This document shows, in pieces, positions 23,122-24,607 of a stretch of DNA of 64,000 nucleotides (the first letter of the stretch is position 1; each line of letters starts with the position of its first letter). Source of the stretch: Ignavibacteriota bacterium. Lineage in GTDB: Bacteria; Bacteroidota; Ignavibacteria; UBA10030; UBA6906. The notes beneath the pieces were generated by a model. It was not told the DNA's origin, did not search any database, and worked only from the letters and a program-made list of their open reading frames with translations. Location: NCBI GenBank assembly GCA_963801355.1, contig CAWDEM010000004.1:424811-488810 (forward strand), read 5' to 3'. A program made the translations under genes and the position numbers.

Positions 23122-23748
23122 TCAATGGCCGACGTCTGGTGCAGCCGGAGGTGGGGGAGCAACGCCAGACTTGCCTCTTCTCTTTTTGAACTGCTCGAAC
23201 TTGTCTTGGAACGTAAACACGTACTCAAGCAGTGCGTTCGTGAATTCCAGTATGTCTCTCGCATCTTGAGCGGAGACGGTCACACTAACGCTATGGGCGG
23301 CTTCATTGCCAGAGATTCTAAGCGCGTCGGCCCATTCGAAAAGTCGGTTTTCAATAATCCCCTGATCCTTCATATCTTTGAGTGCAGAAGCAAGGTTCCG
23401 GCCTGTGACCTTGTGTTCTTCACAGATTCCCTCCAACGTCTTCCGGCACATAATGGCTGCTGCTGTGAACGCCTTTGTTCCAAAACAGGCTTGCGCCTCT
23501 TCGTAGGCTGAACGGATAGTCTTAGGGATCGTGGGGCTAACAGTTTTTTCCTTCGCAGGGTATATTTGAGAGGGTTCACTAAAACCCGATCCTTCATCAA
23601 CTTGGAGCATTAAGAACGGGCGTGCACATCGTGGACATTTCGCGAAAGTGTACCTGCCCAGCATCTCCACTTCGTCTTCGTATTTCTCGTACGTGAAAAG
23701 TTCTTGTCCATCAACGATAGCCTCGCATTCCAGGCACCTAATTAGCAT
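23122..23748 (-). CDS. Zinc-ribbon + DUF4145 domain protein
   Basis: N-terminal CLECE...CPRC zinc ribbon and a C-terminal DUF4145-like helical domain (AAIMCRKTLEGICEEH...FEWADALRISGNEAAH). The ORF is open to 23823. Confidence 0.65.
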   Translation of the reverse strand: MLIRCLECEAIVDGQELFTYEKYEDEVEMLGRYTFAKCPRCARPFLMLQVDEGSGFSEPSQIYPAKEKTVSPTIPKTIRSAYEEAQACFGTKAFTAAAIMCRKTLEGICEEHKVTGRNLASALKDMKDQGIIENRLFEWADALRISGNEAAHSVSVTVSAQDARDILEFTNALLEYVFTFQDKFEQFKKRRGKSGVAPPPPAAPDVGH

Positions 23749-23860
23749 GAGTTTGTCCTCCGATTGTTGCTCCCCCATGTGACGCGGCTCACCAGCGACG
23801 CTCGCGTCATGATCCGACTCCACGCGGCGTCAGGTGCAGCCGCCGGGTAACCGGTTAAGA

Positions 23861-24607
23861 CTACCAGTTGAACTCAACGAACTGCGAAAGGTGGTTTCCA
23901 TGTCGTTCTTCTATGCAACGTAGGTGATATTTCAATTGCGACATGCCGATCGGCTCCCCGTTGAACCAGATATCAGTTAAGGGTGCCGGTGGAGTTTCGG
24001 GTAGTAGGTACATCAAGAACTTGAATCCCCGAAAAGCGAAGAAGCCACCTGCAACAAATGCCTTGTCCTTGAACAAGGGAGCGAACATTACGGTATCTGT
24101 CAAATGCAGGTTTTGACCAGCACGTGCAATGGAGTACAAACCAGCGTGACCAGAAAAAGGCCTAAGGCCAAACACACTTCCTACAAGTTCTTCTGTAGGT
24201 CTTCCCGGATGAGAGCCTTCCCCGATGGGAAGGTTTTCGTTGACGGAAATGTTGATGAGGGTCTTAAGAAACCACCGTTCAAGGATTGGGCCATCGATAG
24301 AATACCGCATCACTTTCCATAACTGAGGATTCCGGTCTTTTCTCACGTTGGATAACCTCATGAATTCCCGAAAGTACTTGAAGGCTGATGCACCCTCTTG
24401 GTCTACAACTGACAAGTCTGCGTTATGTTTCTCGCACAGGATCTTGGAAGTCAGGGAAGATAGGCCGATCTTTCTGGGTTCATCGCGACACCACGAAAAG
24501 CCTTTCACCATAACGATGTCACCTTCGAACAATCCGCGGGAGACTATATGCTCCCTGGAAATCTTGTCCGTACACGAACCGATGGAGGACGCCCAACATT
24601 CAGACAT
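23861..24607 (-). CDS. HNH endonuclease-domain protein with uncharacterised C-terminal domain
   Basis: The N-terminal CWASSIGSC...REHIVSRG...ILCEKHN resembles the HNH motif (C..C ... (D/E)H ... C..HN). Confidence 0.5.
   Translation of the reverse strand: MSECWASSIGSCTDKISREHIVSRGLFEGDIVMVKGFSWCRDEPRKIGLSSLTSKILCEKHNADLSVVDQEGASAFKYFREFMRLSNVRKDRNPQLWKVMRYSIDGPILERWFLKTLINISVNENLPIGEGSHPGRPTEELVGSVFGLRPFSGHAGLYSIARAGQNLHLTDTVMFAPLFKDKAFVAGGFFAFRGFKFLMYLLPETPPAPLTDIWFNGEPIGMSQLKYHLRCIEERHGNHLSQFVEFNW

Follow-up and report, generated by a model that had tools for sequence, protein, structure and literature searches.

RAZR (ring-activated zinc-finger RNase) is the name given, following a mechanistic study (PMC13017515), to PD-T7-4, a system that originated from a functional selection in E. 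coli (PMC9519451). It is a single, oligomer-forming protein made up of a zinc-finger domain of the Cys4 type and an HEPN RNase of the DUF4145 type, of which the zinc finger serves as the sensor and wraps ring-shaped phage proteins (Gp77 or portal); the ring-bound protein, for which R146 and H154 are essential, cleaves single-stranded RNA, whereupon translation stops and the infection aborts, and E. coli RAZR accomplishes this alone (PMC13017515). BxaP, which is BREX-associated, and Ishtar, which acts against plasmids, are further single-protein DUF4145/HEPN defences (PMC10799925; bioRxiv 10.64898/2026.07.06.735840), and DUF4145 is also fused to some type I HsdR proteins (PMC3710099). Here we describe two adjacent minus-strand genes in a 64,000-nt stretch of an Ignavibacteriota bacterium (contig CAWDEM010000004.1; the whole stretch is referred to as the window), namely a 248-aa open reading frame (ORF), ORF248 (23861–24607), and a zinc-ribbon/DUF4145 gene (23122–23748), which the original prediction had taken as one candidate two-gene module. 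Our analysis indicates that they are probably two independent single-gene conflict genes, one RAZR-like and one HNH_5-like, which became neighbours by chance as cargo of the same integrative island.

Judged from profile matches and domain architecture, the DUF4145 gene is a distant new member of RAZR, a known single-gene abortive-infection system, with its trigger and activity predicted by homology. Its product matched Pfam DUF4145 (PF13643) with E = 4e-18 (65.7 bits; cutoff 23.1) and the PADLOC profile of PD-T7-4 (PDLC04109) with E = 1.3e-13, residues 29–206 of the 233-aa ORF aligning to positions 15–185 of the 211 in the profile, so that the match spans the ribbon as well as the HEPN domain and goes beyond the HEPN core alone. 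The C4 zinc ribbon and DUF4145 domain noticed in the original prediction were thereby borne out, whereas the named system that it did not recognise can be supplied for this gene, as both architecture and profile identify it with PD-T7-4. The listed ORF reaches back to a GTG at 23823 (233 aa); however, an ATG at 23748 is preceded, at a distance of 7 nt, by the Shine-Dalgarno sequence GGAGGA, and all homologues begin with MLVEC, so the gene most likely starts at 23748 and encodes 208 residues. In this numbering the N-terminal Cys4 zinc ribbon occupies residues 1–45 (23614–23748) with C5, C8, C38 and C41 as its cysteines, and the DUF4145 HEPN RNase domain, as matched by Pfam, occupies residues 83–170 (23239–23502) and includes the putative catalytic residues R144 (codon 23317–23319) and H152 (codon 23293–23295). 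The four cysteines and R144, G147, N148 and H152 of the motif R144-x2-G-N-x3-H152 are all unchanged across 30 homologues. Similarity was also found to PDB entry 9y9c (24 identical chains, described as 'DUF4145 domain-containing protein'; E = 1e-3), which we read as the RAZR-Gp77 ring described in PMC13017515; the alignment includes the R..H motif, and the R144/H152 region lies against adicRIvGNqavH of chain 9y9c_OA, the site of RAZR R146/H154.

The likeness to RAZR therefore extends over the Cys4 ribbon, the linker and the C-terminal DUF4145 HEPN with R-x2-G-N-x3-H, in matching architecture and size, and also over the lifestyle of the gene, which in both cases stands without a conserved partner and occurs on mobile elements and prophages. 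The window protein matched phrog_1305 (E = 7e-27), and its relatives are found in temperate phages and plasmids, where they are annotated as 'DUF4145 domain-containing' or 'DNA binding'. BxaP and Ishtar are built differently, with the HEPN domain at the N-terminus and fused to HEAT-like or alpha/beta C-terminal domains, while in the window protein the zinc ribbon comes first, as in RAZR. Two points weigh against the assignment. Pairwise similarity to E. coli RAZR is weak (E = 1e-3) and confined to the HEPN domain, making the window protein very distant in sequence, and the region aligned with the RAZR oligomerisation residues differs, with LEYVF in place of IVDDRI in what is a distant alignment; in E. 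coli, D179, D180 and R184 are the dimer-dimer interface residues for higher-order RAZR oligomers. The zinc-ribbon sequence likewise differs from that of E. coli RAZR, and hence the trigger specificity probably differs too. The host of the gene is apparently a soil bacterial lineage, judging from the homologues. By homology, the RAZR-like protein would pre-assemble as oligomers, the zinc-ribbon domains of which would attach to a ring-shaped protein of the phage, for example the portal; the HEPN dimers (R144/H152) would then be switched on, cut single-stranded RNA, halt translation and abort the infection. The RAZR mechanism would in this way be extended to a distant clade of soil bacteria with differing zinc ribbons and, presumably, differing triggers.

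The genomic context of the two families was compared in 68 genomic loci carrying ORF248 homologues (8 kb per side where the contig permitted) and in 80 metagenomic loci carrying close relatives of the RAZR-like gene, of which 42 include 1 kb or more of upstream sequence and 48 include 1 kb or more on the downstream side. No RAZR-like gene was found within 8 kb in any of the 68 ORF248-family loci, and none of the 80 RAZR-like loci contained an ORF248 homologue. The two genes do not form a conserved pair in either direction, which refutes the two-gene module of the original prediction, for which a missing HMM match for HNH together with a lack of co-conservation had been named as the refuting outcome, and removes a false lead. 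A defence or abortive-infection character and the domains were rightly recognised there; what fails is the joint system. Clustering of neighbours within 5 kb gave none conserved for the ORF248 family, and the 80 RAZR-like loci yielded only clusters of the gene itself and of alternative-frame shadow ORFs. Among the other genes of the window, a single one had a match near the ORF248-family loci, a prokaryotic Argonaute (pAgo) in one locus. It belongs to Granulicella sp. S190 (L023:4995-8723), in which a TIR-APAZ gene and a short pAgo (SPARTA) directly precede the ORF248 homologue, with its start some 75 nt behind them; together with the window, this is the second instance of the family beside a short-Argonaute system.

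A two-component defence or abortive-infection system, in which an HNH DNase would work with a HEPN RNase or sensor, nevertheless has the local arrangement in its favour, for the two genes are co-oriented, 112 nt apart and without a terminator-like site between them, both lie in a defence-rich island, and the same arrangement was seen on one short read-assembly contig that encodes an identical 248-aa protein, presumably from the same organism. Set against this are the absence of the pair from all 68 and all 80 loci, the lack of a conserved neighbour for either gene, and the fact that RAZR acts alone in E. coli (PMC13017515), so that such a system is considered very improbable. Two observations still tell against complete independence of the genes. 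Here they are adjacent and co-oriented, and a local functional interplay is possible. Moreover, a relaxed search combined with a motif search for DUF4145-like ORFs near ORF248 homologues returned one marginal case, a 298-aa ORF with the motif RTQRNDAVH (E = 0.06) in an Edaphobacter metagenome-assembled genome (L021:138-1032); this HEPN-like ORF lies 1.2 kb upstream of the ORF248 homologue, has no zinc ribbon and differs in architecture, and it is the sole case in the 68 loci.

The original prediction had also placed the pair immediately upstream of hsdR, at the head of a defence cluster. The two co-oriented genes are indeed present on the minus strand (23861–24607 and, as listed, 23122–23823), but along this strand the order is hsdM-hsdS-hsdR-ORF248-DUF4145 gene, with the hsdR stop at 24632 and the ORF248 start at 24607, which puts them 3' of hsdR, at the tail of hsdMSR. 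No terminator-like site was found in the 24-nt gap between hsdR and ORF248 (24608–24631), and we therefore infer that ORF248 is transcribed together with hsdR; none was found either between ORF248 and the DUF4145 gene, and a scan of the 112-nt spacer (23749–23860, minus strand), which contains the Shine-Dalgarno sequence of the RAZR-like gene, gave neither a consensus promoter nor a terminator. By their homologues (110 close ones for ORF248, with E down to 6e-99 and its own sequence excluded, and more than 519 for the second ORF at 23122–23823), both are genuine genes, and in comparison with these homologues both are full-length and intact.

The place of the two genes also admits the reading that both are accessory to the adjacent type I restriction-modification (R-M) system, the DUF4145 gene being, for example, a detached N-terminal DUF4145 domain of HsdR. 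Consistent with this, ORF248 starts only 24 nt after hsdR, DUF4145-HsdR fusions exist (PMC3710099), and weak matches to REase_I (0.021) and PRK11448/NF008521 (9e-4, 17 bits where the cutoff is 729) were obtained. However, type I R-M genes like the hsdR, hsdS and hsdM of the window were not found near any of the 80 RAZR-like loci or the searched ORF248-family loci, the PD-T7-4 profile covers ribbon and HEPN rather than the HEPN core alone, and the local hsdR, hsdS and hsdM are themselves broken by frameshifts. There is thus very little to recommend an accessory role.

ORF248 is a member of a large, unnamed and horizontally mobile family of solitary proteins of about 250 aa. A profile search over 1.84 billion representatives returned 3,211 clusters at 50% identity with E ≤ 1e-3, including 738 with E ≤ 1e-30, and of the best 150 clusters nearly all have a length of about 250 aa and align from end to end. 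Members were found in Acidobacteriota, many Proteobacteria, Planctomycetota, Bacteroidota and Chloroflexota and on actinobacterial plasmids, the plasmid homologues being labelled 'hypothetical protein' by the Prokaryotic Genome Annotation Pipeline. In three mycobacteriophages the ORF248 module is part of a longer protein. In Mycobacterium phage Mao1 this is gp3 (L155:1727-2920), a 397-aa protein encoded in the terminase-portal interval, which combines an ORF248-like N-terminal module (33% identity across residues 4–117) with an N-terminal SEC-C zinc motif; the module of phages Sejanus and Mask lies at coordinates equal to those in Mao1. ORF248 itself had no match among the Pfam, NCBIfam, PADLOC or PHROG models, Pfam searches with the distant plasmid and phage homologues gave nothing except the SEC-C motif of Mao1 gp3, and the family profile gave one match among PDB sequences, to a capsid protein at E = 1, which was put down to chance. 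The family thus represents an annotation gap of more than 3,000 clusters without a Pfam, NCBIfam, PADLOC or PHROG model or a matching solved structure.

Conservation within the family is concentrated at the N-terminus, with a mean pairwise identity of 44% in the N-terminal half against 28% in the C-terminal half. In an alignment of 263 sequences the near-invariant positions are C4, C12, E19, H20, L57, C58, H61, N62, D69, E110, W112, K115 and G156, and the most conserved ones are C4, C12 and the motifs SREHIVS (E19-H20) and LCEKHN (C58-x2-H61-N62). These motifs fall in residues 1–70 (24398–24607), in which we place a putative divergent treble-clef His-Me finger of HNH_5-like type, with C4, C12, C58 and H61 as putative zinc ligands and E19-H20, N62 and S66/D69 as putative catalytic residues. 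Further downstream lies a conserved helix, LERWFLKT (residues 106–121, 24245–24292), which contains E110, R111, W112 and K115; this region is helical in the AlphaFold model, and E110, W112 and K115 are invariant among diverse members. It is followed by a variable beta-rich C-terminal domain (residues 123–248, 23864–24241).

In His-Me finger nucleases the catalytic histidine ends the first strand, and the second strand is succeeded by a core helix whose first turn holds an Asn or His; the definition further includes an acidic or His residue preceding the catalytic His and, on the helix, a polar residue at +4 or +8 (PMC5714182). In the AlphaFold model of ORF248, which was of high confidence (predicted local distance difference test score, pLDDT, of 92; predicted template modelling score, pTM, of 0.90), strand 16–20 ends at H20 and strand 53–58 leads into helix 59–64 with N62 in its first turn, while the near-invariant E19 stands just before H20 and S66 and the invariant D69 follow at +4 and +7. 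The modelled placement of H20, N62, E19 and S66/D69 in strands and helix fits the published definition (PMC5714182). C4-x7-C12 and C58-x2-H61, a conserved variant pattern, would correspond to the paired cysteines of a treble-clef zinc site.

Profile-profile comparison gave modest support in the same direction. Aligned by hhalign to a Pfam-verified HNH_5 family, consisting of the homologues of L050:6879-7889, residues 1–75 of the ORF248 family scored 24.1 (P = 8e-4) in the catalytic register, against 11.0 +/- 2.5 for a column-shuffled null, and none of 200 composition-preserving shuffles reached this score. A Cys-rich zinc ribbon (10.6) and a reversed profile (9.4) served as controls, and the positive control of HNH_5 against canonical HNH scored 33.1. 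With HNH_5 proteins taken singly, E was about 0.05, and here the protein of L050 aligned over the LCxxHN/LCxxCN motif and that of L055 over an unrelated region. Taken together, the model placement, the treble-clef positions of the Cys and His residues and the match to HNH_5 make it likely, although unproven, that ORF248 is a nuclease with a divergent His-Me finger. In such an enzyme the zinc would be held by C4, C12, C58 and H61, H20 would act as the general base, E19, N62 and S66/D69 would bind the catalytic metal, and the variable beta-rich C-terminal half would give target specificity or sensing.

Several results count against this assignment. Neither ORF248 nor any of 37 diverse relatives matched an HNH-clan model (Pfam and NCBIfam for ORF248; any HNH family of Pfam at E ≤ 10 for the relatives), and the hhalign probability for the HNH_5 comparison is only 24.5%. 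Of the HNH-like motif claimed in the original prediction, therefore, the residues are present and are the most conserved ones of the family, but support comes from profile-profile similarity to HNH_5 and not from HMMs; the profile searches suggested there recovered DUF4145 (Pfam E = 4e-18) but no HNH in Pfam or NCBIfam. Comparison of the N-terminal profile with two canonical HNH sequences, and of the C-terminal domain with that of the HNH_5 family, was not significant, and the ORF248 model, submitted whole or as its N-terminal 128 residues, had no significant neighbour among solved structures, and its structural neighbours included no His-Me finger. On these grounds, namely the absence of an HNH-clan HMM match in 37 members and of a His-Me finger among structural neighbours, the low hhalign probability and the non-significant comparison with canonical HNH, ORF248 could be a non-nuclease of unrelated function, in which zinc bound by the Cys/His pattern has a structural role and the resemblance to HNH_5 is convergent or spurious. 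This is unlikely, since the invariant residues are those that catalysis needs and stand at the right secondary-structure positions (E19-H20, N62, S66 at +4 and D69 at +7), and since the HNH_5 score lies above all 200 shuffles with the Cys-rich control at the level of the null.

As a His-Me finger protein, ORF248 would resemble most closely the stand-alone HNH_5 (PF14279) proteins, such as the 336-aa product of L050:6879-7889, which similarly consist of an N-terminal finger and an uncharacterised C-terminus of about 200 aa. The motif registers run in parallel, with C..C, EH and LCxxCN..D in HNH_5 and C..C, EH and LCxxHN..D in ORF248. In contrast to HNH_5, ORF248 is missed by the HNH_5 HMM, has a C-x7-C knuckle and a His for the fourth Cys, and carries a beta-hairpin insert of about 20 residues between the strands, an invariant ERWxLK helix and an unrelated C-terminal domain; no counterpart was found for three of its features, the C-terminal domain, the LERWxLKT helix and the hairpin of about 20 residues between the core strands. 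A working analogy is provided by the His-Me nucleases of the T4 endonuclease VII and McrA type, which have a zinc-stabilised beta-beta-alpha metal site and the pattern D/E-H ... C-x2-C-N, although ORF248 has no detectable sequence or fold match to either. HNH_5-type genes were also noticed next to ORF248 homologues at two loci, on the same strand and adjoining upstream in Pseudomonas yangonensis (L050:6879-7889, above the Pfam cutoff) and convergent downstream in Asticcacaulis benevestitus (L055:8773-9921, E = 3e-4, below the cutoff).

The neighbourhoods of ORF248 homologues change quickly: already at 55–70% protein identity, none of 54 locus pairs shares a neighbour within 5 kb. A small conserved upstream partner or antitoxin was not found, the 25 candidate ORFs being mutually unrelated. 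ORF248 homologues often begin 1–75 nt after an unrelated co-oriented gene, and the genes that precede them include enolase, Mfd, FtsK, PolA, FabF, CysG, pyruvate:ferredoxin oxidoreductase, a ROK protein, glucuronate isomerase and, in the window, HsdR. The defence and conflict genes among 122 immediate neighbours comprise short pAgo, PDC-S06, AbiEii, AbiJ, ThsB, mad2 and AbiU2 HEPN. It speaks against a defence role, however, that these 122 neighbours are mostly housekeeping genes and that the enrichment for defence islands is modest and stands without a background comparison.

This mode of insertion recalls selfish elements, and ORF248 might be a free-standing homing-type endonuclease that lodges by conserved genes and spreads via cleavage and repair. 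Such an origin would account for the fact that the homologues very often start 1–75 nt behind a highly conserved gene in the same orientation (enolase, polA, mfd, ftsK, fabF, cysG), for the mycobacteriophage homologue between terminase and portal and for the quick turnover of context. Homing endonucleases typically retain one target, however, and the lack of any shared neighbour in the 54 pairs at 55–70% identity means that the insertion sites differ among fairly close relatives; in addition, introns, inteins and flanking repeats were not observed, and several copies stand among defence or toxin-antitoxin genes. We regard a homing endonuclease as improbable.

As neither a partner nor an immunity gene is conserved with it, a nuclease encoded by ORF248 would have to be self-limiting, either gated in the style of abortive infection or confined to non-self, for example modified, nucleic acid in the style of type IV restriction. 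McrA offers an analogy, as a lone nuclease gene that is tolerated without an immunity partner through type IV restriction of modified DNA. On the evidence of its sequences, the family is of moderate interest as a candidate single-gene nuclease element with a recognisable yet highly diverged putative nuclease site. More speculatively, and with the odds against it, ORF248 might found a widespread, unnamed class of single-protein immune or conflict nucleases, in which a divergent CCCH treble-clef His-Me finger would be joined to a rapidly evolving, beta-rich domain for sensing or specificity whose fold is unseen in the PDB, and which would travel as promoter-less cassettes lodging just after unrelated host genes. 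If ORF248 were a defence or selfish nuclease, a common single-gene element would have been overlooked by current annotation pipelines.

Both genes are cargo of an integrative island of about 34 kb at a tRNA-Pro gene. The island is bracketed by two exact copies of a 50-nt direct repeat, attL (17943–17992, plus strand), which is the 3' half of tRNA-Pro, and attR (51992–52041, plus strand), and holds all defence genes of the window; an Rfam search over the whole window returned tRNA-Pro only. A tyrosine integrase (18049–19071) follows attL, and behind it come an AAA_25 ATPase (19768–20832) and an AEP-TOTE-type primase (20751–21782). The type I R-M genes hsdR, hsdS and hsdM (24632–29813) are each split across at least two frames, with a shift in hsdR near 26395, which reflects either decay or assembly indels. 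The island also carries a short pAgo system of SPARSA type, consisting of pAgo (30015–31463) and SIR2-APAZ (31436–33257); the frame of the latter is broken near 33010–33020, apparently by a 4-nt GTCA tandem duplication, and the gene may be a pseudogene. Three further ORFs of the island were searched. The 187-aa ORF at 22179–22742 had no match in Pfam (E ≤ 1), PADLOC, NCBIfam or PHROG, the 212-aa ORF at 34658–35296 had none in Pfam (E ≤ 0.01) or PADLOC, and the 226-aa ORF at 35392–36072 had none in Pfam (E ≤ 0.01) and weak matches to PADLOC TIR effectors (E = 0.011 and 0.036).

Two sets of repeats were also observed. A direct repeat of 75–90 nt, present at 23008–23090 and 33528–33610 (89% identity over 72 nt, 10,520 bp apart), brackets the block of the RAZR-like gene, ORF248, the type I R-M genes and SPARSA. 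It holds a TTGACC box and a TTTTCCGA/TCGGAAAA hairpin on the minus strand, had no Rfam match and gave no significant structure on folding; it may mark where a nested cassette ends, or represent a regulatory element present in two copies. At 46550–50850 there are about 20 tandem copies of a repeat of about 120 nt (40 codons), 60–90% identical, which lie in or beside long minus-strand ORFs such as 49043–51151 and probably belong to a large repeat-containing protein encoded at the island's far end.

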